A stretch of DNA of 64,000 nt from Escherichia coli (GTDB lineage Bacteria; Pseudomonadota; Gammaproteobacteria; Enterobacterales; Enterobacteriaceae): the NCBI RefSeq assembly GCF_016903815.1, contig NZ_CP069973.1. One strand, 5' to 3'. A program made the position numbers and the translations under genes. Under the pieces are notes generated by a model. The model was not told the DNA's origin, searched no databases, and saw nothing but the letters and a program-made list of their open reading frames with translations. This document shows, piece after piece, positions 2,995-17,709 of this stretch (the first letter of the stretch is position 1; every line of letters begins with the position of its first letter).

Positions 2995-3346
2995 GGCAAG
3001 ACGTCGCGGTAACGGTGCTGGAAACAGAAACGGGCCGCTACTCTGACACGCTGCGTTCGGCGCTGATTTCTCTGGATGGCGATAACGCATGGGCATTAAG
3101 CGAAAGTTGGTGCGGCACTATTCAGTGGATTTGTCCGAGTCCGTATCGGCCTCATCATGGGCGCAAAAACTTGTTTCTGGGCATGCTAACAAGCGGCTGG
3201 CGCGATTGCTGATTGCCTGGACGCTGGAACAACAGCAACAGGAAAATAGCGCGGTGCTGAAATCGCGGCGGCGAATGTTCCATCACCAGATTGAACGTGG
3301 CAACCCGAGACGGACATTTACAGGGATGGCTTTTATCGAAGGATAA
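2995..3346 (+). pseudogene. prfH: Peptide-chain-release-factor homologue, disrupted
   Basis: PrfH-like segments split between two frames (ORFs 2958-3212 and 3089-3346); fused to the RtcB fragment by an apparent deletion. Confidence 0.55.
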
Positions 3347-3402: not shown

Positions 3403-4860
3403 TTACTTCGCCGGAATTTCTTTCAGCAGCTCAGTCAGCAGTGTCCAGTAATGACCTACGCTTTCGATGTGAACTTGCTCATCCGGAGAGTGTGGACCGG
3501 TGATTGTTGGCCCGATAGAAACCATGTCCATTTCCGGATACGGTTTTTTGAACAGACCACATTCCAGGCCCGCGTGGATAATCTGGATGTTCGGCGTCTT
3601 GTTGAACAGACGCTGATAAGTTTCACGTACCAGATGCATCACCGGAGAATTAGCGTCCGGCTGCCAGCCAGGATATGCGCCTTTCGCTTCGGTTTTCGCG
3701 CCAGCCAGTTTACCCAGCGAATCCAGCATGCTCACCACGTAGTCTTTACCGCTGTCGATCAGAGAACGGATCAGGCAGTGAATTTCTACGTTATTGTCAG
3801 TCATGGTCACCACACCGACGTTCAGGGAGGTTTCCACCACACCTTTTGCCACATCGGAATTGCGGATCACACCGTTCGGGGTGGCGTTCAGCAGACGAAT
3901 AAAGGTATCGCGAGATTTCGCAATCAGGGCAGCTTTATCGTTCGCAACAGAGTCCAGCAGCAATGCCAGATTTTTCTCTTTCTCTGCCAGCTCGTTTTTC
4001 AGGATCTCCTGATAGGTATTCACCAGAGATTTCAGGGCGTCGACTTTATCAGCTGCGACAGCAATGGTCGCAAAGGCTTCACGCGGGATGGCGTTACGCA
4101 GTGTGCCACCGTTGAAATCGATAAGGCGCAGGTCCAGCTCTTCTGCATGACCCGCCAGGAAGCGCACCAGCAGTTTGTTGGCATTACCCAGGCCAACGTG
4201 GATTTCACCGCCGGAGTGACCGCCTTTCAGGCCTTTTAAGGTTAACTTGAAGGTTTCAAAACCAGCTGGAACCGCTTCACGATCTAAATGCAGGTTGGAG
4301 GTGAAGTCGATACCCCCCGCGCAACCCATGTAGATTTCACCTTCCTCTTCGGAGTCGGTGTTAATCAGAATATCAGCCTGCAACCAGTTGCTCTGTAAGC
4401 CAAAAGCACCATCCATACCGGCTTCTTCGGTCATGGTCAGCAGCACTTCCAGCGGGCCGTGAACCACGTTTTCGTCAGCCAGAACAGCCAGCGCAGACGC
4501 CATACCAATGCCGTTATCCGCACCCAGCGTGGTGCCGCGCGCTTTAACCCATTCGCCATCAATATAAGGCTGGATAGGATCTTTAGTGAAGTCATGCACG
4601 GTGTCGTTATTTTTCTGCGGCACCATATCGAGGTGGGCCTGCAAGACGACTGGTTTACGATTTTCCATACCTGCGGTAGCAGGTTTACGAATCAGGATAT
4701 TACCTACCTGATCGCGTTCGACATGGAAACCTTTCTCTTTTGCCCAACCAACAATGTATTCAGCGAGTTGCTCTTCATGATAGGACGGGTGAGGAATAGA
4801 ACAGATTTTGGCAAAAATATCCCACAGCGGCTGTGGAGATAATTGAGACAGTTCAGACAC
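3403..4860 (-). CDS. pepD: Cytosol non-specific dipeptidase (peptidase D)
   Basis: 485-aa ORF; M20-family peptidase sequence, recognised as PepD. Confidence 0.95.
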   Translation of the reverse strand: MSELSQLSPQPLWDIFAKICSIPHPSYHEEQLAEYIVGWAKEKGFHVERDQVGNILIRKPATAGMENRKPVVLQAHLDMVPQKNNDTVHDFTKDPIQPYIDGEWVKARGTTLGADNGIGMASALAVLADENVVHGPLEVLLTMTEEAGMDGAFGLQSNWLQADILINTDSEEEGEIYMGCAGGIDFTSNLHLDREAVPAGFETFKLTLKGLKGGHSGGEIHVGLGNANKLLVRFLAGHAEELDLRLIDFNGGTLRNAIPREAFATIAVAADKVDALKSLVNTYQEILKNELAEKEKNLALLLDSVANDKAALIAKSRDTFIRLLNATPNGVIRNSDVAKGVVETSLNVGVVTMTDNNVEIHCLIRSLIDSGKDYVVSMLDSLGKLAGAKTEAKGAYPGWQPDANSPVMHLVRETYQRLFNKTPNIQIIHAGLECGLFKKPYPEMDMVSIGPTITGPHSPDEQVHIESVGHYWTLLTELLKEIPAK

Positions 4861-5120
4861 GTTAAGTCTCCTTGTCGATCACCCGCAAAACAGTATTGCA
4901 GGTCACAGGGTTAGCAGAAAATGTTGTCAACACAAGACAGGCTTGCGAGATATGTTTGAGAATACCACTTTATCCCGCGTCAGGGAGAGGCAGTGCGTAA
5001 AAAGACGCGGACTCATGTGAAATACTGGTTTTTAGTGCGCCAGATCTCTATAATCTCGCGCAACCTATTTTCCCCTCGAACACTTTTTAAGCCGTAGATA
5101 AACAGGCTGGGACACTTCAC

Positions 5121-5579
5121 ATGAGCGAAAAATACATCGTCACCTGGGACATGTTGCAGATCCATGCACGTAAACTCGCAAGCCGACTGATGCCTTCTGA
5201 ACAATGGAAAGGCATTATTGCCGTAAGCCGTGGCGGTCTGGTACCGGGTGCGTTACTGGCGCGTGAACTGGGTATTCGTCATGTCGATACCGTTTGTATT
5301 TCCAGCTACGATCACGACAACCAGCGCGAGCTTAAAGTGCTGAAACGCGCAGAAGGCGATGGCGAAGGCTTCATCGTTATTGATGACCTGGTGGATACCG
5401 GTGGTACTGCGGTTGCGATTCGTGAAATGTATCCAAAAGCGCACTTTGTCACCATCTTCGCAAAACCGGCTGGTCGCCCGCTGGTTGATGATTATGTTGT
5501 TGATATCCCGCAAGATACCTGGATCGAACAGCCGTGGGATATGGGCGTCGTATTCGTCCCGCCAATCTCCGGTCGCTAA
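5121..5579 (+). CDS. gpt: Xanthine-guanine phosphoribosyltransferase
   Basis: 152-aa ORF with PRTase motif ([11 protein letters not shown]). Confidence 0.95.
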
Positions 5580-5586
5580 TCTTTTC

Positions 5587-5619
5587 AACGCCTGGCACTG
5601 CCGGGCGTTGTTCTTTTTA
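5587..5619 (+). terminator. Probable rho-independent terminator after gpt
   Basis: GC stem (caacgcc…ggcgttg) followed by a T-run. Confidence 0.5.
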
Positions 5620-5670
5620 ACTTCAGGCGGGTTACAATAGTTTCCAGTAAGTATTCTGGAGGCTGCATCC

Positions 5671-6915
5671 ATGACACAGGCAAACCTGAGCGAAACCCTG
5701 TTCAAACCCCGCTTTAAACATCCTGAAACCTCGACGCTAGTCCGCCGCTTTAATCACGGCGCACAACCGCCTGTGCAGTCGGCCCTTGATGGTAAAACCA
5801 TCCCTCACTGGTATCGCATGATTAACCGTCTGATGTGGATCTGGCGCGGCATTGACCCACGTGAAATCCTCGACGTCCAGGCACGTATTGTGATGAGCGA
5901 TGCCGAACGTACCGACGATGATTTATACGATACGGTGATTGGCTACCGTGGTGGCAACTGGATTTATGAGTGGGCCACCCAGGCGATGGTGTGGCAACAA
6001 AAAGCCTGTGCGGAAGAAGATCCGCAACTCAGTGGTCGTCACTGGCTGCATGCGGCTACGTTGTACAACATTGCCGCCTATCCTCATCTGAAAGGAGATG
6101 ACCTGGCCGAGCAAGCGCAGGCTTTGTCAAACCGCGCCTATGAAGAGGCCGCTCAGCGTCTGCCGGGCACCATGCGGCAGATGGAGTTTACCGTACCCGG
6201 CGGTGCGCCCATCACCGGCTTTTTGCATATGCCGAAAGGCGATGGCCCGTTCCCGACAGTATTAATGTGTGGTGGTCTGGATGCGATGCAGACGGACTAT
6301 TACAGCCTGTATGAACGTTATTTTGCGCCGCGCGGCATTGCGATGCTGACTATTGATATGCCGTCGGTGGGCTTTTCTTCAAAATGGAAGCTCACCCAGG
6401 ACTCCAGCCTGTTGCATCAGCACGTCTTAAAGGCGCTGCCTAACGTACCGTGGGTAGATCACACTCGCGTCGCGGCCTTTGGTTTCCGTTTCGGCGCTAA
6501 CGTTGCCGTGCGTCTGGCATACCTTGAATCGCCGCGTCTGAAAGCGGTTGCCTGTCTTGGTCCGGTAGTTCATACCCTGTTGAGTGATTTTAAGTGCCAG
6601 CAACAGGTGCCGGAAATGTATCTTGACGTTCTGGCGAGCCGTTTGGGGATGCATGATGCTTCCGACGAAGCGTTGCGCGTGGAGCTGAATCGCTATTCAT
6701 TAAAAGTGCAAGGATTGCTGGGACGTCGCTGCCCAACGCCAATGTTATCAGGCTACTGGAAGAACGATCCGTTCAGCCCGGAAGAGGACTCACGCTTAAT
6801 CACCTCATCATCTGCTGACGGTAAATTGTTAGAGATCCCATTTAACCCGGTGTATCGGAATTTTGACAAAGGTCTTCAGGAAATCACCGACTGGATTGAA
6901 AAACGATTGTGTTAA
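5671..6915 (+). CDS. frsA: Fermentation/respiration switch protein (esterase)
   Basis: 414-aa ORF recognised as FrsA. Confidence 0.9.
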
Positions 6916-7374
<459 letters not shown>

Positions 7375-7393
7375 GTGAAATGTGCCGGATGCA

Positions 7394-7414
7394 TCACATC
7401 CGGCAATATCCATT
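7394..7414. terminator. Hairpin between convergent crl and phoE
   Basis: Inverted repeat gccggatg / catccggc between two convergent genes; overlaps the phoE stop codon. Confidence 0.4.
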
Positions 7415-8468
7415 AAAACTGATAGGTCATGCCAACCGCGACAATATCATCATTATTGATGTTCAGCTTATTATCGCTATCCAGTTGGTTGATTTTATAA
7501 TCAACAAACGCTGACATATTTTTGTTGAAATAATATGTAGCACCGACGTCGATATAATTGACCAGATCTTCATCACCGATACCTTCAATATCTTTCCCTT
7601 TCGATAAGACATAACCCAGGGATGGACGCAGACCAAAGTCAAACTGGTATTGAGCGACCGCTTCAAAGTTCTGTGTCTTATTGGCAAAGCCGCCAGTTAT
7701 TGGCGTCATTTTGCGTGTTTCAGAATAGAAAGTTGCCAGATAAATATTATTGGCATCGTATTTCAGACCTGTTGCCCATGCTTCTGCACGCTTGCCTGTG
7801 CCACGGCTTTGCAGGTTCTGCTCGTTAGTGCGATCGGAGTTGGTATAGGCCCCACTGATGGCGAAATCGCTGCCACCAAAGTCATATGTCAATGACGTAC
7901 CGAAGCCATCGCCGTTTTGCTTTTTAACGTCGCGGTTTTCGTTTTTCCCTTGATATTGCAGGGTTAAGTTCAGGCCATCGATAACGCCGAAGAAGTCGGT
8001 GTTACGGTAAGTAGCCAGACCGCTGGCGCGTTTGGTCATAAAGTTGTCGGTCTGCGCCGAGGAGTCGCCACCAAATTCCGGGAACATATCGGTCCAGGCT
8101 TCCACGTCATACAGCGCGCCCAGGTTACGACCATAATCGAAAGAACCCAAATCTTTATATTTCAACCCGGCAAAAGCGAGACGCGTTTTTTGCTGTGCAG
8201 TATCACTCTCCGCTTTATTACCGGCAAACTCCGCTTCCCACCGACCATAACCCGTCAGTTGATCGTTAATTTGTGTTTCGCCTTTAAAACCAAAACGGAT
8301 ATAACTCTGGTCGCCATCTTTACTGTCGTTATCACTCATATAATGCATGGCTTTAACTTTGCCATAGACATCCAGTTTATTACCGTCTTTGTTATATATT
8401 TCTGCGGCCTGTACGGATGCAGATGCCACAATGCCCATCACCACTAATGCCAGAGTGCTCTTTTTCAT
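7413..8468 (-). CDS. phoE: Phosphate-starvation outer-membrane porin PhoE
   Basis: Porin sequence with signal peptide [21 protein letters not shown]; start moved to the second in-frame Met to give 351 aa. Confidence 0.9.
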
Positions 8469-8541
8469 TTTCATTCCTGATTTTAATTAACGCGCGAATA
8501 TTCAGCGGGAGAGTCCCGTTGAAAACAGGAAAGTTTTTAAC

Positions 8542-8568
8542 CTGAGATTGTTAAAGATATATTACAGA
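8542..8568 (-). promoter_or_regulatory. Pho box (PhoB site) of the phoE promoter
   Basis: Minus-strand reading CTGTAATATATCTTTAACAATCTCAGG contains tandem CTGTAAT-like repeats upstream of phoE. Confidence 0.6.
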
Positions 8569-8755
8569 TTAATAATATTCTTAAAATGTGGTAATTTATT
8601 AAATCTGTAATAAAAGCGTAAACAACTGCCGCTACGCTTGCTGATCCCGCGCAACAAAACACCATGCTTTGCTCGCAGATGGTTGGCAACCGACGACAGT
8701 CCTGCTAAAACGTTCGTTTGATATCATTTTTCCTAAAATTGAATGGCAGAGAATC

Positions 8756-9859
8756 ATGAGTGACAGCCAGACGCTGGTGGTAAAACTCGGCACCAGTGTG
8801 CTAACAGGCGGATCGCGCCGCCTGAACCGTGCCCATATTGTTGAACTCGTTCGCCAGTGCGCGCAGTTACATGCCGCCGGGCATCGGATTGTTATTGTGA
8901 CGTCGGGCGCGATTGCCGCCGGACGTGAGCACCTGGGTTACCCAGAACTACCAGCGACTATCGCCTCGAAACAACTGCTGGCGGCGGTAGGGCAGAGTCG
9001 ACTGATTCAACTGTGGGAACAGCTGTTTTCTATTTATGGCATTCACGTCGGGCAAATGCTGCTGACCCGTGCTGATATGGAAGACCGTGAACGCTTCCTG
9101 AACGCCCGCGACACCCTGCGTGCGTTGCTCGATAACAATATCGTTCCGGTAATCAATGAGAACGATGCTGTCGCGACTGCAGAGATTAAGGTCGGCGATA
9201 ACGATAACCTTTCTGCGCTGGCGGCGATTCTGGCGGGTGCCGATAAACTGTTGCTGCTGACCGATCAAAAAGGTTTGTATACCGCTGACCCGCGCAGCAA
9301 TCCGCAGGCAGAACTGATTAAAGATGTTTACGGCATTGATGACGCACTGCGCGCGATTGCTGGCGACAGCGTTTCAGGCCTCGGAACTGGCGGCATGAGT
9401 ACCAAATTGCAGGCCGCGGACGTGGCTTGCCGTGCGGGTATCGACACCATTATTGCCGCGGGCAGCAAGCCGGGCGTTATTGGTGACGTGATGGAAGGCA
9501 TTTCCGTCGGTACGCTGTTCCATGCCCAGGCGACCCCGCTTGAAAACCGTAAACGCTGGATTTTCGGTGCACCACCTGCGGGTGAAATCACGGTAGATGA
9601 AGGGGCAACCGCCGCCATTCTTGAACGCGGCAGCTCCCTGTTGCCGAAAGGTATTAAAAGCGTGACTGGCAACTTCTCGCGTGGTGAAGTGATCCGCATT
9701 TGTAACCTCGAAGGTCGCGATATCGCCCACGGCGTCAGTCGTTACAACAGCGATGCATTACGCCGTATTGCCGGACACCACTCGCAAGAAATAGATGCAA
9801 TACTGGGATATGAATACGGCCCGGTTGCCGTTCACCGTGATGACATGATTACCCGTTAA
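8756..9859 (+). CDS. proB: Glutamate 5-kinase
   Basis: Start set at [14 protein letters not shown] (367 aa); the ORF-track start at 8669 is an over-extension. Confidence 0.9.
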
Positions 9860-9870
9860 GGAGCTGGCCG

Positions 9871-11124
9871 ATGCTGGAACAAATGGGCATTGCCGCGAAG
9901 CAAGCCTCGTATAAATTAGCGCAACTCTCCAGTCGCGAAAAAAATCGCGTGCTGGAAAAAATCGCCGATGAACTGGAAGCACAAAGCGAAATCATCCTCA
10001 ACGCTAACGCCCAGGATGTTGCTGACGCGCGTGCCAATGGCCTTAGCGAAGCGATGCTTGACCGTCTGGCACTGACGCCCGCACGGCTGAAAGGCATTGC
10101 CGATGATGTGCGCCAGGTGTGCAACCTCGCCGATCCGGTGGGGCAGGTGATTGATGGTGGTGTGCTGGACAGCGGTCTGCGTCTGGAGCGTCGTCGCGTA
10201 CCGCTGGGGGTGATTGGCGTGATTTATGAAGCTCGCCCGAACGTGACGGTTGATGTCGCTTCGCTGTGCCTGAAAACCGGTAACGCAGTGATCCTGCGTG
10301 GTGGCAAAGAAACCTGTCGCACTAACGCTGCAACGGTGGCGGTGATTCAGGACGCCCTGAAATCCTGCGATTTACCGGCAGGCGCAGTACAGGCGATTGA
10401 TAATCCTGACCGCGCGCTGGTCAGTGAAATGCTGCGTATGGATAAATACATCGACATGCTGATCCCGCGTGGTGGCGCTGGCCTGCATAAGCTGTGCCGC
10501 GAACAGTCGACAATCCCGGTGATCACAGGCGGTATAGGCGTATGCCATATTTACGTTGATGAAAGTGCAGAGATCGCTGAAGCCCTGAAAGTAATTGTCA
10601 ACGCGAAAACTCAGCGTCCGAGCACATGTAATACGGTAGAAACGTTGCTGGTAAATAAAAACATCGCCGATAGCTTCCTGCCCGCATTAAGCAAGCAAAT
10701 GGCGGAAAGCGGCGTGACATTACACGCAGATGTAGCTGCGCTGGCGCAGTTGCAGGCAGGCCCCGCGAAGGTGGTGGCTGTTAAAGCCGAAGAGTATGAC
10801 GATGAGTTTCTGTCATTAGATTTGAACGTCAAAATCGTCAGCGATCTTGACGATGCCATCGCCCATATTCGTGAACACGGCACACAACACTCCGATGCGA
10901 TCCTGACCCGCGATATGCGCAACGCCCAGCGTTTTGTTAACGAAGTGGATTCGTCCGCTGTTTACGTTAACGCCTCTACGCGTTTTACCGACGGCGGCCA
11001 GTTTGGACTGGGTGCGGAAGTGGCGGTAAGCACACAAAAACTCCACGCGCGTGGCCCAATGGGGCTGGAAGCACTGACCACTTACAAGTGGATCGGCATT
11101 GGTGATTACACCATTCGTGCGTAA
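9871..11124 (+). CDS. proA: Gamma-glutamyl phosphate reductase
   Basis: 417-aa ORF directly downstream of proB. Confidence 0.95.
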
Positions 11125-11238: not shown

Positions 11239-11314
11239 GCCGATATAGCTCAGTTGGTAGAGCAGCGCATTCGTAATGCGAAGGTCGGAGGTTCGACTCC
11301 TCTTATCGGCACCA
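11239..11314 (+). tRNA. thrW: tRNA-Thr (CGU anticodon)
   Basis: 76-nt sequence GCCGATATAGCTCAGTTGGTAGAGCAGC…GGTTCGACTCCTCTTATCGGCACCA with cloverleaf features and encoded CCA; position after proA matches thrW. Confidence 0.9.
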
Positions 11315-11328
11315 TTAAAATCAATAAG

Positions 11329-11595
11329 TTACACATCATTAGTACCTTCCTTATTTTTTGACTGGGACAAATTTGGGACCGATGGGTTCAGGACTGAGTC
11401 TATTTGCCGTGCGTGTTCGGTAAGGTGATTAGGCGCGAGGTGAGCATATCGACGAACCATTTCGATAGACTCCCAGCCTCCCATTTCTGAAAATGCAAGA
11501 AGAGAAACACTGGACTGAACCAGCCTGCTTGCCTTTGCTATCAAAGTACCTTGAAGGCCAGATGATTTCTGGCGATATTTACAGCGCTTCCGCAA
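11329..11595 (-). pseudogene. Tyrosine-recombinase (phage integrase) C-terminal remnant
   Basis: ORF ends in …[30 protein letters not shown]…, a typical P4-like integrase C-terminus; the upstream part is degenerate and there is no room for the catalytic core; lies 15 bp from the tRNA 3' end. Confidence 0.7.
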
Positions 11596-11677
11596 TGAGT
11601 TTTTCTCTGTGCCGCCAGAGGCGTTCCCCGCTTTTTCAGCACCGCAATAATGTCGGCGGAATGCCAGTCCTGTTGCA

Positions 11678-12148
11678 TCATGCGGCCACCTCGCTGATAA
11701 ATTTTACGCCGTCGGCGGTACGCAGCCAGCGTGGGGCTTTGAGTCCTTCCGTGAAATACCAGACCAGCTCACACAGCAGCCCGGTCAGGGTTTGCTCCAT
11801 TTTTGGTTCCGCCGGACGTTCCAGCAGAAGCTGGAGTAGTGCGAGGCAGTATTCGCACAAGGAATCAGGTTCGGAAATAAAGTGCTCTGGTGTGGCGGGA
11901 AGGGTATCCACGGTCAGGCTTTCGGTAAGATGCGGTGGGATGGGGTCGTGTAGTGTGGGTTGCAGTAGCGCAAGAGCCGCGTGAAGCCGCCCGCAGAGCG
12001 CCAGTCGTAGCGCTGGATCGTCGGTTTCAATCAGGGTTTCGGCAAAGCGGGCGCAGTAGTCAGCAAGGACAGTGAAATCCGTGGTGGCATTGAAGGGGAC
12101 GGTCAATAGATCGAGTAAATCGCTGTCAGTGGTGAGGATTGTAGCCAT
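11678..12148 (-). CDS. Hypothetical acidic protein (156 aa), unknown function
   Basis: Clean ORF with an AGGAGG-like RBS (ggaggttgcc) just upstream of its ATG; leucine/acidic-rich; no family recognised by eye. Confidence 0.5.
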
Positions 12149-12494
12149 AGGGCAACCTCCGATAAGTGGGTGTTCAAGCCACCACCGGAGAGGCTAATCT
12201 CGCGGGTGGTGGAACCGGGCAGGGTTAGCCTTACCAGCCTTATCGGACACTGGCGCGTCTTGCGACGCCCCCGCCCGGCCCACCATTGAGATGTAACCGT
12301 GCGAACAACACAAAAAAAGACGCTGGCGCGTCATGTGTCGCCGATAAGATTTCTTCAGGAGGCTAATCCCGACGCCTGATTTTGCAGGCGCGGGAGAAAG
12401 ATACTGCGATTGGTCATGAGTGGCAAGGGCTACATCATGTTTACCAACATCTCACGCAAAAATACCCTGATTATTAATAGCGAAAATCAGTTTC

Positions 12495-15400
12495 TTATTT
12501 TGGCGGTAGCTTTTTGCGGTTCTTTGCCAACTGGAATCCTTCAGGTAACGGTTTGAATTTATCGCCGCCTTTAGGCCAGCGTTTTGCCCTGCTCTGAAAT
12601 GCCCTTAACGAGTCGATATCCAGCGTTGCAGCGACCACAAAGTCATTATCACCGCCCTTCACACGAGCAATATCACGCATAAAGGGTTCTTTTGCCGGGG
12701 AACGTACGCGACTATCGCCGTATTTTCGGTTATTCACTAAAATAGTATAGGCATGAATATCCAGCGCTGCTGATTCAATCAACGATGCAAACGTATCTAG
12801 ATCTTTATTCCAGCTCAATACCATTAATGCATCGAGTGCGCCCTGAAAACGGATCCTCGCTTTACTATTCTGGAGTTCAGAGCAAATCATAACGCCAAAA
12901 TTGACGCCGTGATGAATATATACCGGCTTACGTTGTTTAACATTAAGTGTCGAATCCCAAGACTTACCATAAATTGAAAATAATGCCTCATCTTCACCTA
13001 CGGCGGGTTCCAGCTTGGGTTGCCATATTTTGACACTCGCTGGATAGCCGAGTCTGTTATCTGAAAGGACAAGTACGGCCTCACTCTTCAGTTGATTATC
13101 GTCTAAGTGGCGGTATTCTGTTCCCGCAATTAGACTGATACCCGCCGAACTCAAACGATCAGCAATACTGTTAACCCAGCGTAACGGGATTGAAAGCTCA
13201 GGGAATAAAACATAATCAGGTTTAGGAGATAGTTTCAATGTTGCATTAACCAGTTCAGAAATCCGCTGGTACCTTGAACGGGACAAGTTAGATTTATTGC
13301 AGGCCATTTTAGCCCAGTCGTCCTCCTCTGTTTTAATGCTGGTTAGCGCAACGACAACTTTATGTTTCCTGTCTGTGCCAATATGAATGAATTTCTTAGG
13401 CCGAGCTTTTTTTGTCGCTTCATCTGAGTCCTGCTCCGATGCTAGCAACGTCGGTTTGATCCATACTCCGCGTAATGCTTGAGTATATTTTGCCCAAATG
13501 GTGGACGGTCTCTCATCTGGTTTTTTGTCGGATGTGGAGGGTAATCCAACACATTCGGGGGCCAGTTCTGATATTTCAGCGGGTGTTAAAGGACGTGTAG
13601 GGAAAATGTAAGGTAGGTAACTTTCGTTCTTACGATTTCCTTTAGCCACTTTTTCCAGTCGGGTATTCTTGGTTGATTTCAAAAATAGCTTAATAACGTC
13701 AATATCAATAAGCGATGAGTCGCTCATTAATTTCAGTATTTTAACTTCTTTTTTACTATCACGCTGATTAACAAGTTTTTCTGCCGACTGACTCTTTACG
13801 ATCTGTTTATAAGGTTCCTTTGCTAAATCAGCTCGAGCTACCAATGGCGCTTTTAAATAAAAATCTGCTGAATCAAAGCGAAGATCCAGTAAATCCTTTA
13901 GATTCGTCAGACTTTGTGAAATATGATTAAAAAATGTATCCGCAAGGCACTCTTCTTTCTTTGAACGTTTATCAAGAAATAATCTGTCAGGACTGTAATA
14001 TCGTGTCGCTGCATCAACAAATAGCCAGCTTAATGTGCCTTTTATACAGCGCCAAAGATCATTTACTGCTCGAGTTTTGCAACCATTTATATTCACTTCC
14101 TTACCTGAAGTAATCACCGATGCCAACAGGTTGATGGATTCGTAAGCTTTAAGTACAATTTTTTCCGCGTGCTGCCATTCATTCATACTGATAGCAAAGC
14201 CAAGCAGCCTTGGCAGATAACTAAAATGTGCAAATAGATTATCAGCCCTAAGAATATGGTTGTAGGCAAACTGATAAAACTCTTCCCGCTGTTCTTTCCA
14301 TTCACTTGGAGGCAGATCTCGTGCCAGTGTTTCAACGTAGCGTAATTGCAGTGACCAGCCCAAACGACGAATGGTTAATCCATCCGCACGGCGCAGAGTA
14401 TCGGCATTTTCACCTACACTACCGGCAGCGGAAAGGACTTTAGCTGCGGTGGAGTGTTCCAGTTGATCCGGTGAAGGCATCAAGCGGTGTTCACTAGAAA
14501 GCTCGTAGATCTCCTTTTCGATACTGTCGAGCAGGTCTATTCCAGCCCTCCCTTGAAGCACGAAAAGTTTTTGCTTATCGGATTGTAACTGGATGGTGGT
14601 CTTACCCTGGAAATGCTCGCCCTGCTGTATTTGCCATATTTGTTTTTGCTCGTTTTTCAAATAAACGCAATCATTGCCAAGCCTATCTTGCAGCAATAAC
14701 ATAAATTCGTGATTATTAGTAATTGTCCCTGTATCGCGTATTACAAGGAACATATCATCGACATAACGACCGTAGTGAATTGGTGATAGTTTTTCAATGA
14801 CTAATTTATCCCAATGGTGTAGCAATATATTTGAAATGATCCGACTGGCTGTTAATCCAATGACCAGACCACCATTAATAACAGGTGTTTTGTACGCTAT
14901 TTTCTTTCCAAATGCCGCTGCGCCGTCAGACCAGTGCTTTAAGAATACTGCTAACTGTGCAGTAAACGCTTTTTCATCCTCAGTCAGTTTTATGTTTAGT
15001 GTGTTATAGAGATCATCAGAGGTTATAGCCAGTGGATCAATAAAATGATAGTAACTTTTTAAATCCAGTGAGGCGGCGATAATGTCACGATCTTTTTCCA
15101 ACTCGTCACGTATAGCTTTTAAGCCATCACCACGCCATTTTTGGTAGGGCTGGAAGTAGGGGCTAAAAGAACCCACGGCACTGATATGGAATGGATTATC
15201 CTGCTCATTGCTAAATAATTCATCATTACGAATACGCTTTAGCCGCGCGCCATAGCAACAGTTATCTAAGCTGGCATCAAATTTATGCCCGACCATGTTA
15301 ATCCATAGTGCAGAGATAATGTGACTATCAACCGGGAAGTCACCAATAATACGAAACTCTGGTATCAGATCAAAATTATTAAATAAATGGTCGGCTGCTC

Positions 15401-15704
15401 GTTTAGGATTAGAAAAGTGGACGTGTCCATTTTGGGATTCATGTTTTTTCTTTGTGGTTAATTTTTTCGGTAACAAACGAAATTTGCCAATCAACTTCTT
15501 ATTGCTACTGAATCCATCTTCGCTCTGCAAAAGATCTAAGAGTTTTTGCAGGTTTTCAAGTAATTCCTGCTCATACTCGGCAAATTTGATAGCAACAGGA
15601 AATGTATTCTCAAAGAAGCTATCGGCTTTTGCTTTCCGGTAAGCGACCAGAAGGTCTTCAATCGTCAGATCATCCCAGCCAGTGAAAATTGCCTGATATG
15701 TCAT
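12495..15704 (-). CDS. Reverse transcriptase fused to a C-terminal nitrilase (carbon-nitrogen hydrolase) domain; candidate defence-associated RT (UG/DRT-like)
   Basis: 1069-aa ORF. RT motifs: ASLDLKSYYHFID (motif A), GLVIGLTASRIISNIL (motif B-like), YGRYVDDMFLV (YVDD at 14754-14765). C-terminal nitrilase-like triad candidates: FPELSIP (Glu codon 13197-13199), a Lys near VKIWQPK, GVMICSE (Cys codon 12881-12883). Confidence 0.8.
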   Translation of the reverse strand: MTYQAIFTGWDDLTIEDLLVAYRKAKADSFFENTFPVAIKFAEYEQELLENLQKLLDLLQSEDGFSSNKKLIGKFRLLPKKLTTKKKHESQNGHVHFSNPKRAADHLFNNFDLIPEFRIIGDFPVDSHIISALWINMVGHKFDASLDNCCYGARLKRIRNDELFSNEQDNPFHISAVGSFSPYFQPYQKWRGDGLKAIRDELEKDRDIIAASLDLKSYYHFIDPLAITSDDLYNTLNIKLTEDEKAFTAQLAVFLKHWSDGAAAFGKKIAYKTPVINGGLVIGLTASRIISNILLHHWDKLVIEKLSPIHYGRYVDDMFLVIRDTGTITNNHEFMLLLQDRLGNDCVYLKNEQKQIWQIQQGEHFQGKTTIQLQSDKQKLFVLQGRAGIDLLDSIEKEIYELSSEHRLMPSPDQLEHSTAAKVLSAAGSVGENADTLRRADGLTIRRLGWSLQLRYVETLARDLPPSEWKEQREEFYQFAYNHILRADNLFAHFSYLPRLLGFAISMNEWQHAEKIVLKAYESINLLASVITSGKEVNINGCKTRAVNDLWRCIKGTLSWLFVDAATRYYSPDRLFLDKRSKKEECLADTFFNHISQSLTNLKDLLDLRFDSADFYLKAPLVARADLAKEPYKQIVKSQSAEKLVNQRDSKKEVKILKLMSDSSLIDIDVIKLFLKSTKNTRLEKVAKGNRKNESYLPYIFPTRPLTPAEISELAPECVGLPSTSDKKPDERPSTIWAKYTQALRGVWIKPTLLASEQDSDEATKKARPKKFIHIGTDRKHKVVVALTSIKTEEDDWAKMACNKSNLSRSRYQRISELVNATLKLSPKPDYVLFPELSIPLRWVNSIADRLSSAGISLIAGTEYRHLDDNQLKSEAVLVLSDNRLGYPASVKIWQPKLEPAVGEDEALFSIYGKSWDSTLNVKQRKPVYIHHGVNFGVMICSELQNSKARIRFQGALDALMVLSWNKDLDTFASLIESAALDIHAYTILVNNRKYGDSRVRSPAKEPFMRDIARVKGGDNDFVVAATLDIDSLRAFQSRAKRWPKGGDKFKPLPEGFQLAKNRKKLPPK

Positions 15705-15998
15705 GCGTTATCGTCCTTAGATTACAGTCTGTACAGAATTAGCCAGCCGTTTCATGCCCGAAGGGGGGCTCTTGACACCAGTAATCCATCAGTGAGGCTG
15801 GCAATAATTTTGATTTGTATCCATGTTACACGCTCCCCGCAACCAGTCCGAGCATATATTTGTCACATTTTTCCCGAAAGTGATTAAGTTTGAATTTTTT
15901 GTTTAATGTCGATTTTTAGTCGACAAAATGAGGAATAAGTAAACTATTTCTTGCTGTGGCGTATCCCTGAATCTACACTGGTTTAAATATTTGTACTA

Positions 15999-16802
15999 AT
16001 GTCTATTCAGAGGCGACAGTTGCCAAACTATCTAAACTGGCTGATGCAGCACACGCTACCCGGCCAGGTGCTGCTCCAGTCATGGCTTACCCGCAACGGC
16101 ATAGATCGTAAGCTCTCTTATCTCTATGTGAAGAATGGCTGGCTCAGGCGGATCGCTCACGGCGTATACTGCCGGACGGGTCGTGAACCGGATTGGGTGG
16201 ATGCGGTTTACTGCCTGCAATCGCAGTGGGAAAAGCCTGTTCGGGTGGCGGGGCTAACCAGCCTTGCGCTTCAGGGTCATGCGCACTATACCGAACAGGG
16301 TAAGCCGCAGGTCTGGCTCGCGCTTCCGGCTTACGTCAAACTGCCGGGATGGTTTTCTGCCTTTGAACAATCCGCAACATTTGTCACGCTGTATACGTCA
16401 GGCCTTACCGCTGATGTAACGCCATTTACTACGGAACTGAAAATTGGTGACCGGCAGTTAGCGGGCAGTGTCCCGGAACTGGTCGCGTATGAGATCGCTT
16501 GTGGCGTTCCTTCGTTGATCTCGTTCGAACATGCCGATGCTCTGTTTCAGGGGATGAATCTTCTCAGCCCGCGTAAATTGCAGGCGTTACTCTGCGCCAG
16601 TCATTCGGTTAAAACCAACCGGGTGATGCTTTACCTTGCCCGGCGTAATGGACACCCTTATTTTCAGTTTATTGATCAAAGCGGTATAGAAACAGGTACG
16701 GGAAAGCGGCAAATCATACCCGGCGGCTGGCTGGAGCCGGATTATCAAATTACTGTTCCACGCGCATTTAAACCGGAAGGAGTCGAAGATGGATCTGCGT
16801 GA
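15999..16802 (+). CDS. AbiEi-like antitoxin/transcriptional regulator (type IV TA / abortive infection)
   Basis: 267-aa ORF; N-terminal segment (…LYVKNGWLRRIAHGVYCR…) matches the AbiEi wHTH signature; overlaps the next gene by 14 bp. Confidence 0.65.
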   Translation: MSIQRRQLPNYLNWLMQHTLPGQVLLQSWLTRNGIDRKLSYLYVKNGWLRRIAHGVYCRTGREPDWVDAVYCLQSQWEKPVRVAGLTSLALQGHAHYTEQGKPQVWLALPAYVKLPGWFSAFEQSATFVTLYTSGLTADVTPFTTELKIGDRQLAGSVPELVAYEIACGVPSLISFEHADALFQGMNLLSPRKLQALLCASHSVKTNRVMLYLARRNGHPYFQFIDQSGIETGTGKRQIIPGGWLEPDYQITVPRAFKPEGVEDGSA

Positions 16803-17709
16803 TAGCTATGCCCGGCAGGTCAAACTGTTGATGGCCGCTCTGCCGTATGTGGCGAAGGAGTCCTGTTTCGCGTTGAAAGGCGGCACCGCAATCAATTTGT
16901 TTGTGCAGGATTTTCCCCGTCTGTCGGTGGATATTGATCTGGCGTATAAGAGCTTTGCGGATCGCGATACTGATCTGGCGGCTATCAACGACGCTTTGAA
17001 GAGGATTACTGCATCGCTGAACGGCAGACCGGGGATCACCGCGATTCGGCAGGAAAATAAAGCGGATGAAAAGCGCATCATTGTGAATACCGCTGATGCA
17101 AAGATTAAGATCGAGGTTAGCCCGGTCTGGCGCGGGCTGTTGTTGCCTCCGGCAGAAATGCCTGTGTGCGAACGTGTGGAAATGGAGTATGGCTTCACCA
17201 CCATGAGTGTCGTCTCGCTGGCGGATCTTTATGGCGGTAAAATCTGCGCAGCGCTTGATCGTCAGCACCCGCGCGATCTGTTTGATGTGCTGAATATGCT
17301 GGAGAAACCGGGACTGATGCGGGAGATCTTTGACGGTTTTCTTTGTTATCTGGCAGGCCATCCCCGCCCCATTGCCGAGTTGCTGGCCCCAAACTGGGAT
17401 ACAGAGCGGATCACGACGCTGTATGCTCAGGAATTTTCGGGGATGACTCAGCAGGAAACGTCGCTGGAATCGCTGCTGTCAGTAACGACTTTGCTGCCGC
17501 AGGCGTTGAAGTCACATCTTACGGATCTGGATCGCGAGTTCTTGCTCAGTTTTAAGCAAAACAGCCCTGACTGGTCGCGGTATCGCTATCCTGAAATTCA
17601 GCATCTTCCGGCTATTCGCTGGAAGCAACGTAATCTGGCGGTGCTGAAAGATAAAAATCCGGCGAAGTATGTGGCGGCGGTGAATAAGCTAGAGAGGGTG
17701 CTGGCGTAA
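16789..17709 (+). CDS. AbiEii-like nucleotidyltransferase toxin (DUF1814-type)
   Basis: 306-aa ORF with nucleotidyltransferase motif FALKGGTAINLF…RLSVDIDLAY; translationally coupled to the upstream AbiEi-like gene. Confidence 0.7.
   Translation: MDLRDSYARQVKLLMAALPYVAKESCFALKGGTAINLFVQDFPRLSVDIDLAYKSFADRDTDLAAINDALKRITASLNGRPGITAIRQENKADEKRIIVNTADAKIKIEVSPVWRGLLLPPAEMPVCERVEMEYGFTTMSVVSLADLYGGKICAALDRQHPRDLFDVLNMLEKPGLMREIFDGFLCYLAGHPRPIAELLAPNWDTERITTLYAQEFSGMTQQETSLESLLSVTTLLPQALKSHLTDLDREFLLSFKQNSPDWSRYRYPEIQHLPAIRWKQRNLAVLKDKNPAKYVAAVNKLERVLA

Follow-up and report, generated by a model that had tools for sequence, protein, structure and literature searches.

In the immI region of phages P1 and P7 (c4, icd, ant), the two loops of the c4 RNA pair with duplicated target sequences, the downstream one lying over the ribosome-binding site of the first open reading frame (ORF), which is translationally coupled to the next gene. 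Genes under C4/CI control include P4 kil and P1 icd, both of which inhibit growth. To our knowledge, all characterised C4/isrK modules control antirepressor-type switches (P1 Ant, P4 epsilon and Gifsy AnrP). The corresponding RNAs of P4, i.e., seqA and the CI RNA, are found in Rfam under the names isrK and C4, respectively (PMC3632133; PMC4825925), and in Gifsy-1 of Salmonella IsrK controls orf45-anrP via an AUGA-coupled gene pair (PMC4825925). Here, we consider a 156-codon ORF of Escherichia coli, referred to as ORF156, which is located in the proBA-thrW region within a stretch of 64,000 nucleotides (RefSeq assembly GCF_016903815.1, contig NZ_CP069973.1; this whole stretch is called the window below) and which is next to a reverse transcriptase (RT)-nitrilase gene. 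The data discussed below make it probable that ORF156 is the first protein-coding cistron of an early operon that is repressed by an antisense RNA, where a P4-family immunity cassette is used as the backbone of a genomic island.

ORF156 (WP_000201185.1 in RefSeq, a hypothetical protein) was noted in a preliminary description of the window as an acidic, leucine-rich and protein-like ORF with a good ribosome-binding site, and the coordinates, the composition of the product (isoelectric point 4.38; 23 Asp and Glu vs 9 Lys and Arg; 19.9% Leu) and the Shine-Dalgarno sequence GGAGG (12160-12156, 7 nt ahead of the ATG) all agree with these statements. As also described there, the ORF and the RT gene share the same orientation and are separated by a structured sequence; both genes are on the minus strand, and the sequence between them is 346 nt long. 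The structured block (12202-12404) is a P4/P1-type immunity cassette and not an RT-associated non-coding RNA, since its conservation does not depend on the RT. In the 5' to 3' direction of the minus strand, the cassette is composed of a promoter, a leader hairpin, the targets a1 and b1, an intrinsic terminator, the C4 RNA, the targets a2 and b2 and, finally, ORF156 (Table 1). The leader matches the isrK family (Rfam RF01394) at 12391-12313 with 68.8 bits (gathering threshold 50), and the a1/b1 motif (RF03163) is found at 12404-12352 with 43.8 bits, just under the gathering threshold of 46.7. The overlap of target b2 with the ribosome-binding site of ORF156 is visible directly in the sequence. 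Because the cassette of promoter, isrK, C4 and second target runs into the Shine-Dalgarno sequence of ORF156, this ORF is the probable first cistron of the RNA-repressed operon.

The pairing of the C4 loops with the two target copies was followed across loci, of which 79 further ones were sampled from one genome per species, in addition to loci of E. coli, Klebsiella and Dickeya. In an alignment of 69 distinct leaders (A5), the named structure is paired in 98.9% of the cells, as compared to 30-44% after sliding of the partners, and none of 500 shuffles reached the observed values. Compensatory changes are found at 7/9 pairs of b'-b2 (95.2% of cells paired) and at 5/7 pairs of a'-a2 (99.6%), while helices 1-3 of C4 itself are paired in 99.8-100% of the cells, with 16 co-varying pairs. 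A separate, independent script, applied to 70 leaders, distinguished 8 alleles of a' and 26 of b', and cognate targets scored above non-cognate ones for both the upstream and the downstream copies (matched by 0/5000 permutations). For the upstream targets the pairing amounts to 6.99/7 for a'-a1 and 7.70/9 for b'-b1, again with no match among 5000 permutations. The co-variation is that expected of immunity-specificity alleles, and it shows that the C4 RNA, both target copies and the ribosome-binding site of ORF156 evolve as one unit.

Table 1. Features of the ORF156 locus in the window; a' and b' denote segments of the C4 RNA, a1/b1 and a2/b2 the upstream and downstream target copies
Feature	Position	Strand	Remarks
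Sigma-70-like promoter	12426-12398	minus	TTGCCA-17-TATCTT; analogue of P4 PLE; conserved in leader alignments
isrK/seqA-type leader	12313-12404	minus	holds the a1/b1 targets and the intrinsic terminator
Target a1 (UUAGCCU)	12366-12360	minus	upstream copy, in leader
Target b1 (CUUAUCGG)	12348-12341	minus	upstream copy, in leader
Intrinsic terminator of leader	12332-12319 plus T run	minus	
C4/CI-type antisense RNA	12202-12290	minus	RF01695, 71.1 bits (gathering threshold 45), E 7.6e-13
C4 loop b' (UCCGAUAAG)	12247-12239	minus	complementary to b targets
C4 segment a' (AGGCUAA)	12231-12225	minus	complementary to a targets
46-aa ORF across C4 RNA	12194-12334	minus	'ash family protein' of RefSeq, where the annotation starts at 12367; corresponds in position to P4 kil
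Target a2 (UUAGCCU)	12191-12197	minus	downstream copy, complementary to a'
Target b2 (CUUAUCGGA)	12166-12158	minus	enters GGAGG of ORF156; complementary to b'
ORF156	11678-12148	minus	ATG at 12148, 156 codons; conserved hypothetical protein, first cistron downstream of C4 RNA
Ner/SfsB-like HTH_35 gene, truncated and frameshifted	11541-11681	minus	ATG overlaps ORF156 stop (ATGA)
Tyrosine integrase 3' remnant	11329-11595	minus	abuts tRNA-Thr; fused to HTH remnant by deletion
tRNA-Thr (thrW)	11239-11311	plus	island integration site adjoining proBA
RT_UG5-nitrilase (DRT-type) gene, 1069 aa	12495-15704	minus	PADLOC; variable cargo directly upstream of promoter

The P4 immunity region is composed of PLE, seqA/kil, CI and seqC and is followed by the left operon with epsilon, orf151 and alpha. 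The cassette shares with this region the order of promoter, isrK/seqA leader, C4/CI RNA and second target, a small kil/Ash-like ORF that runs through the RNA and a second target that abuts the GGAGG of the next ORF. The P4 ORF found after seqC starts with MATTLTPSHP and shows homology to the N-terminal ~18 residues of ORF156-family proteins, and intact relatives of ORF156 are accompanied by a P4-type integrase. Beyond the N-terminus, however, the 69-aa post-seqC ORF is unrelated to ORF156, and comparison of ORF156 by BLASTP and hhalign with the old 'cI' ORF, orf151, epsilon and the post-seqC ORF of P4 gave only this 18-residue match. A further difference is that a Ner-like helix-turn-helix (HTH) gene and an Integrase_1 gene are found here in place of the replication genes, and that the operon is directed towards the integrase. 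The P4 post-seqC ORF (in the P4 sequence, L006, about 8377-8171, minus strand) makes up the last 69 aa of the old 'cI' ORF; it also shares the DNA of its start region with the ORF156 family and then diverges completely, which suggests a putative recombination breakpoint just inside the first gene.

The P1/P7 system shares the RNA family RF01695 and the a1/b1 targets of RF03163, but controls Icd (73 aa) and Ant, whereas the genes at the present locus are ORF156 and a small Ner-like HTH gene, in an element that is not a phage. Gifsy-1 has an isrK-family leader and a first ORF that overlaps the next by AUGA and thereby gates its translation, but there the small IsrK RNA activates translation (PMC4825925). 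Furthermore, orf45 of Gifsy-1 encodes a short, poorly conserved protein and is paired with an antirepressor gene, in contrast to the conserved 156-aa protein and HTH found here. The C4/isrK module is found in 191 phage records, typically ahead of genes annotated as antirepressors, and ORF156 occupies the same position, i.e., that of a C4/isrK-controlled early gene. The isrK and C4 pair also precedes homologues at other E. coli loci, is found in the same order in P4 itself and is present in Serratia, Mangrovibacter, Symbiopectobacterium and a satellite-like element. The kind of regulation is known; what is new is the variant seen here, with a different pair of proteins under control and a different island setting.

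The 3' strand of the closing stem of C4 (CCACCACC) can alternatively pair with a downstream copy of the 5' strand (GGUGGUGG, 12188-12181); the resulting hairpin (within 12181-12216, minus strand) would hold a2 in its loop. This downstream copy co-varies with the stem across the loci and in P4, and the alternative pairing is a possible candidate for a structural switch. The coding sequence annotated in RefSeq as 'ash family protein' (12194-12367) lies wholly over the C4 RNA and the isrK terminator; it may be the counterpart of kil, or else an artefact of translating an RNA gene.

ORF156 is a real and widely conserved gene. Homologous DNA is found in 1328 of 5426 complete E. coli genomes, in divergence classes that range from 99% to about 65% identity, and a protein search yielded 646 homologue clusters at 90% identity, all named 'hypothetical', from Escherichia, Salmonella, Klebsiella, Enterobacter, Citrobacter, Dickeya, Pectobacterium, Brenneria and other Enterobacterales; an exhaustive profile search gave 230 representatives at 50% identity. 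The term 'orphan', which was used for the ORF in the preliminary description, is thus inappropriate in the sense of a strain-specific gene, conservation extending far outside this strain. The ORF is intact, at about 140-162 aa, in 89 of 95 collected copies, and the ratio of nonsynonymous to synonymous substitution rates (dN/dS) has a pairwise median of 0.26 and equals 0.10 when ORF156 is compared with its nearest allele, the second thrW remnant, i.e., the gene is under purifying selection.

Sensitive profile searches and structure prediction, which had been proposed from the outset, returned no family and a confident helical-bundle model. Searches of ORF156 against Pfam, PHROGs, NCBIfam and PADLOC, of 37 diverse family members against Pfam, and of the PDB with the family profiles A1 and A4 gave no match. 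The AlphaFold2 model (predicted local distance difference test 81, predicted template modelling score (pTM) 0.75) is composed of four long and two short helices and a C-terminal beta-hairpin, which holds the most conserved motif of the family, KAPRW-RT-DG. No transmembrane (TM) segment is found in the protein (highest 19-residue hydropathy 1.14). The family is absent from phage genomes and from IMG/VR: no relative was detected in the latter, and among the INPHARED phage genomes the search returned one unverified 1.4-kb record only. Two candidate relationships were rejected. Apparent domain fusions among longer homologues can be traced to read-through of the C4/Ash region or to tandem modules, and membership in the Ash/P4 Kil family (PF10554) was discarded because PF10554 is found only in over-extended gene calls through the C4 region.

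In terms of genomic context, ORF156 is part of the conserved, integrase-proximal backbone of tRNA-linked islands in Enterobacterales and is not cargo. Between loci, homology sets in abruptly at the promoter (about -260 to -282 relative to the ATG), and everything upstream differs. Downstream of ORF156, an HTH_35 gene (68-84 aa, Ner-like) is found in 46 of 95 loci, overlapping the ORF by the 4 nt ATGA in 40 of 42 pairs; an Integrase_1/Phage_int_SAM_2 gene follows in 34/95 and a P4-type integrase, on the opposite strand, in 37/95. The order in intact relatives is ORF156, HTH_35, sometimes a toxin-antitoxin pair, the Integrase_1 gene, the P4-type integrase and the tRNA. The cargo next to the promoter is composed of RT-nitrilase and AbiE in the window and in one Serratia genome, and of a type I restriction-modification (RM) system and AbiE in another allele of the same thrW site (L002); elsewhere the slot holds type I RM with DarTG, a type VI secretion system with Rhs, a Gabija-like pair or a DUF4747 pair. 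Among the functions considered in the preliminary description, 'unrelated island cargo' was closest, since ORF156 is an island gene unrelated to the RT, although it belongs to the backbone.

A search by tblastn for the P4 proteins alpha, sid, delta, psu, epsilon, orf151 and orf106 gave no match in the window or at any of the 95 loci, and because the first five are found at none of these loci, the islands are not P4 satellites. In their general make-up they resemble the 'integrase-only' defence islands of E. coli, the mobilisation of which is unexplained (PMC10121019), in that both are tRNA-linked, carry one or more integrases and variable defence cargo and have no recognisable genes of satellites, integrative and conjugative elements or transposons. 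The C4/isrK cassette, ORF156 and the Ner-like gene are not described in that work as a conserved backbone (PMC10121019), and in the literature on this island family no description of the C4-ORF156 module was found. In intact islands an EFASI RNA motif (RF02957) adjoins the Integrase_1-family gene (L003, 10572-10700; L004, 10104-10233; L033, 14821-14948); it is absent from the window, as that part of the island is deleted.

The module in the window is a remnant that retains the promoter, both pairs of targets and C4 in intact form. What is left is the self-repressing promoter-isrK-C4-ORF156 unit, as the island has lost its own integrases and holds only a truncated HTH gene. The first ~24 residues of the HTH remnant match Ner/SfsB-type HTH_35 proteins and a frameshift follows after about 24 codons; the integrase to which it is joined is an unrelated one, represented by its 3' end only, beside thrW. 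In RefSeq the order is tRNA-Thr, integrase 3' remnant, frameshifted and truncated helix-turn-helix gene, ORF156, 'ash family protein', RNA-directed DNA polymerase and AbiEi/AbiEii, so that the placement of ORF156 between an integrase remnant and the RT, as previously described, is correct in its order but omits the Ner-like gene on the integrase side. The plus-strand ORF at 11493-11984, which had been regarded as spurious, does exist as a reading frame, and that judgement is reasonable given that it has no family match, is antisense to a gene under purifying selection and crosses two pseudogene remnants.

In comparison with L002, the HTH/integrase junction of the window is about 99% identical, ORF156 92% and the integrase tail about 60%, and the two alleles have different b specificities, with changes in b', b1 and b2 that match one another; the thrW locus is a recombination mosaic. 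An argument for purifying selection after decay, built on the two thrW alleles, is weakened by this mosaic structure. The attachment (att) region is itself mosaic, given the low identity of the integrase remnant and the value of about 99% for the sequence just beyond, and the T-stem of the tRNA-Thr (window positions 11288 and 11302) differs between these alleles by a compensatory pair, G-C vs U-A.

Solo cassettes, of about 1 kb and composed of promoter, isrK, C4 and ORF, are also found among housekeeping genes (L065, 9700-10650; L090 and L071, around 10000), where there is no integrase or tRNA within 10 kb. One, with isrK and C4, is located between ugd and rmlD in an O-antigen cluster of Symbiopectobacterium, and some others abut a tRNA, as in the window. 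In eight leaders (L016, L024, L046, L070, L073, L075, L088 and L093) C4 has been lost through a deletion for which recombination of the a1/b1 with the a2/b2 repeats is the apparent cause; these leaders retain the promoter, a1, b2, the Shine-Dalgarno sequence and the ORF, which is mostly intact. Loss of C4 should derepress the ORF, except where a matching C4 is supplied in trans. A distant homologue (L104) is found in the order int, AlpA, AntA, C4, orf65, ORF156-like gene, two small ORFs, Toprim primase and DUF927 helicase, i.e., an early operon that leads to replication genes, and this element may represent the complete, ancestral type. The spans in L104 are 3231-3296 and 4435-10032, and an int-alpA RNA is also found in this satellite-like element.

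The neighbouring cargo block (12495-17709) is composed of the RT_UG5-nitrilase gene and divergently transcribed AbiEi/AbiEii; no ORF of at least 40 aa that could serve as an RT partner was seen in the 294-nt spacer between RT and AbiEi. AbiE without the RT accompanies other cargo in E. coli and Klebsiella. The preliminary description had considered ORF156 as an accessory or regulatory component of the RT defence locus, and the two genes are indeed adjacent and co-oriented here. Furthermore, the same RT and AbiE block (81-90% amino-acid identity) is found upstream of a C4-ORF156 module in Serratia marcescens (L033), and the experimentally validated UG5 RT-nitrilase requires a second gene (PMC9122126). 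The neighbouring RT is assigned to the same RT_UG5-nitrilase type by PADLOC, but the partner in the characterised system is a protein with one TM segment, encoded in the psu-int hotspot of true P4-like satellites (PMC9122126), whereas ORF156 is soluble, lacks such a segment and belongs to the island backbone. No PADLOC model includes ORF156, which has its own promoter and RNA control and is found with many other cargos or none, in part among housekeeping genes; the neighbourhood comparison suggested earlier places an RT beside it at only 2 independent loci of about 93. The RT is encoded in 260 E. coli genomes with an identity of at least 95% throughout (260/261 records at least 99%), as compared to 1328 for ORF156, and since the RT copies are essentially all at least 99% identical, i.e., essentially one clone, its linkage to this ORF156 allele is clonal and incidental. 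The Serratia RT is 81% identical but the Serratia ORF156 only 60%, i.e., cargo and backbone have different histories. A role of ORF156 as a subunit of the RT-nitrilase (DRT, UG5) system is therefore highly improbable.

By analogy with P4 (CI, seqA, seqC), P1/P7 (c4-icd-ant) and Gifsy-1, C4 would be processed from the transcript of its own operon and would pair with a2 and b2, thereby occluding the ribosome-binding site of ORF156. With translational coupling lost, the uncoupled transcription would terminate early in a Rho-dependent manner. Occlusion and premature termination together would keep ORF156 and the downstream genes silent at steady state, and expression would be expected only when C4 is scarce, as upon entry into a naive cell, or when it is overridden. 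In the most speculative part of this scheme, the acidic four-helix bundle could, together with the Ner-like repressor or ahead of it, turn a quiescent island into an active one.

What the protein does in such a scheme is a more tentative matter. As characterised C4/isrK modules control antirepressor-type switches, ORF156 could be an early regulator of antirepressor type that binds proteins and has the Ner-like repressor as its partner or target, a suggestion that we consider possible but not the more probable outcome. Several observations weigh against this picture and against that of a P4-type repressed operon. The repression, the Rho-dependent termination and the processing of C4 are inferred from other systems. 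The operon reads towards the integrase, unlike in P4, and none of the P4 proteins listed above accompanies it. Past its first ~18 residues, ORF156 has no similarity to the ORFs of P4, including ORF151 and epsilon, the one known antirepressor with which it was compared directly (hhalign probability 0.08%), and because, in addition, fold searches with the model returned only generic four-helix bundles, it is from the position of the gene that the antirepressor role is deduced. A co-fold of ORF156 and HTH_35 (Gly-Ser linker, paired alignment) reached a pTM of 0.55, a value that speaks neither for nor against a complex. Finally, about half of the loci hold the ORF156 cassette without HTH or integrase, some of them among housekeeping genes, and in these copies the ORF may act alone or may be a relic.

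If C4 and ORF156 formed a type-I-like toxin-antitoxin (addiction) cassette, with ORF156 toxic when derepressed in the manner of P4 Kil or P1 Icd, the lasting of the small promoter-isrK-C4-ORF unit after decay of the island would be explained. In agreement with this proposal, solo cassettes with intact ORFs are found in housekeeping contexts and beside tRNAs, their conserved block ends near the stop of the ORF, 89/95 copies are intact and kil and icd are growth-inhibitory genes under the same kind of control. The eight C4-deleted leaders, however, for the most part have an intact ORF immediately after the promoter and thereby speak against a strong toxicity, and an acidic, soluble helical bundle that resembles neither Kil nor Icd does not look like a typical type I toxin, such that we regard this proposal as unlikely. 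An early anti-defence (e.g., anti-restriction) protein, made transiently upon entry into a new cell before C4 accumulates, was among the options of the preliminary description; it would fit an acidic protein (pI 4.4; family median 4.5) encoded by the first gene of an operon that is expected to fire only in C4-naive cells. Yet neither in sequence nor in fold does ORF156 resemble ArdA, ArdB/KlcA, Ocr or any family of PADLOC or PHROGs, DNA mimics have a much higher net charge than its -14, phage genomes and IMG/VR hold no member of the family, and the ORF is tightly coupled to the gene of a DNA-binding regulator; this function is thus slightly less likely still.

Alternatively, ORF156 could in this particular strain be a functionless relic of a decayed island, silenced by C4 and merely not inactivated yet. 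The frameshifted and truncated HTH gene and the loss of the island integrases would fit, an intact self-repressing cassette predicts little expression, and the mosaic relation to L002 (junction ~99%, ORF 92%) means that the conservation could stem from recombination with intact copies. Against decay speak the dN/dS of 0.10 with respect to the other thrW remnant allele, the high intactness among copies without HTH or integrase and the finding that the remnant is fixed, undisrupted, in about 800 E. coli genomes, and on balance we consider a relic rather unlikely. The reading of ORF156 as the first cistron of an RNA-repressed island operon is compatible with a broader, speculative scheme, to which we assign a similarly low likelihood: promoter-isrK-C4-ORF156(-HTH_35-Integrase_1) might control a hitherto unrecognised class of islands, which would be minimal, derived from P4 and 'integrase-only' and would load defence and competition cargo directly upstream of the promoter, with ORF156 as a new kind of switch protein (e.g., a helper- or invader-sensing antirepressor or a partner of the Ner-like repressor), the release of which from C4 would lead to excision or mobilisation. 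If this scheme were true, the persistence of solo C4-ORF156 cassettes would reflect an autonomous function.

Placing ORF156 and its RNA block outside the RT-nitrilase system removes a false lead, and both should be left out when that system is dissected. At the same time, a protein family without a Pfam entry gains a regulatory context, i.e., that of the first gene under a C4/CI-type immunity RNA, and the natural specificity alleles, together with compensatory mutations, provide a ready genetic test of ORF156 control. More generally, the data suggest that a P4-type immunity cassette is the common backbone of many of the small 'integrase-only' cargo islands found at tRNA genes in Enterobacterales, with a cargo slot directly upstream of the promoter. 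If confirmed, this shared backbone would help to explain how such islands are controlled and, perhaps, mobilised.

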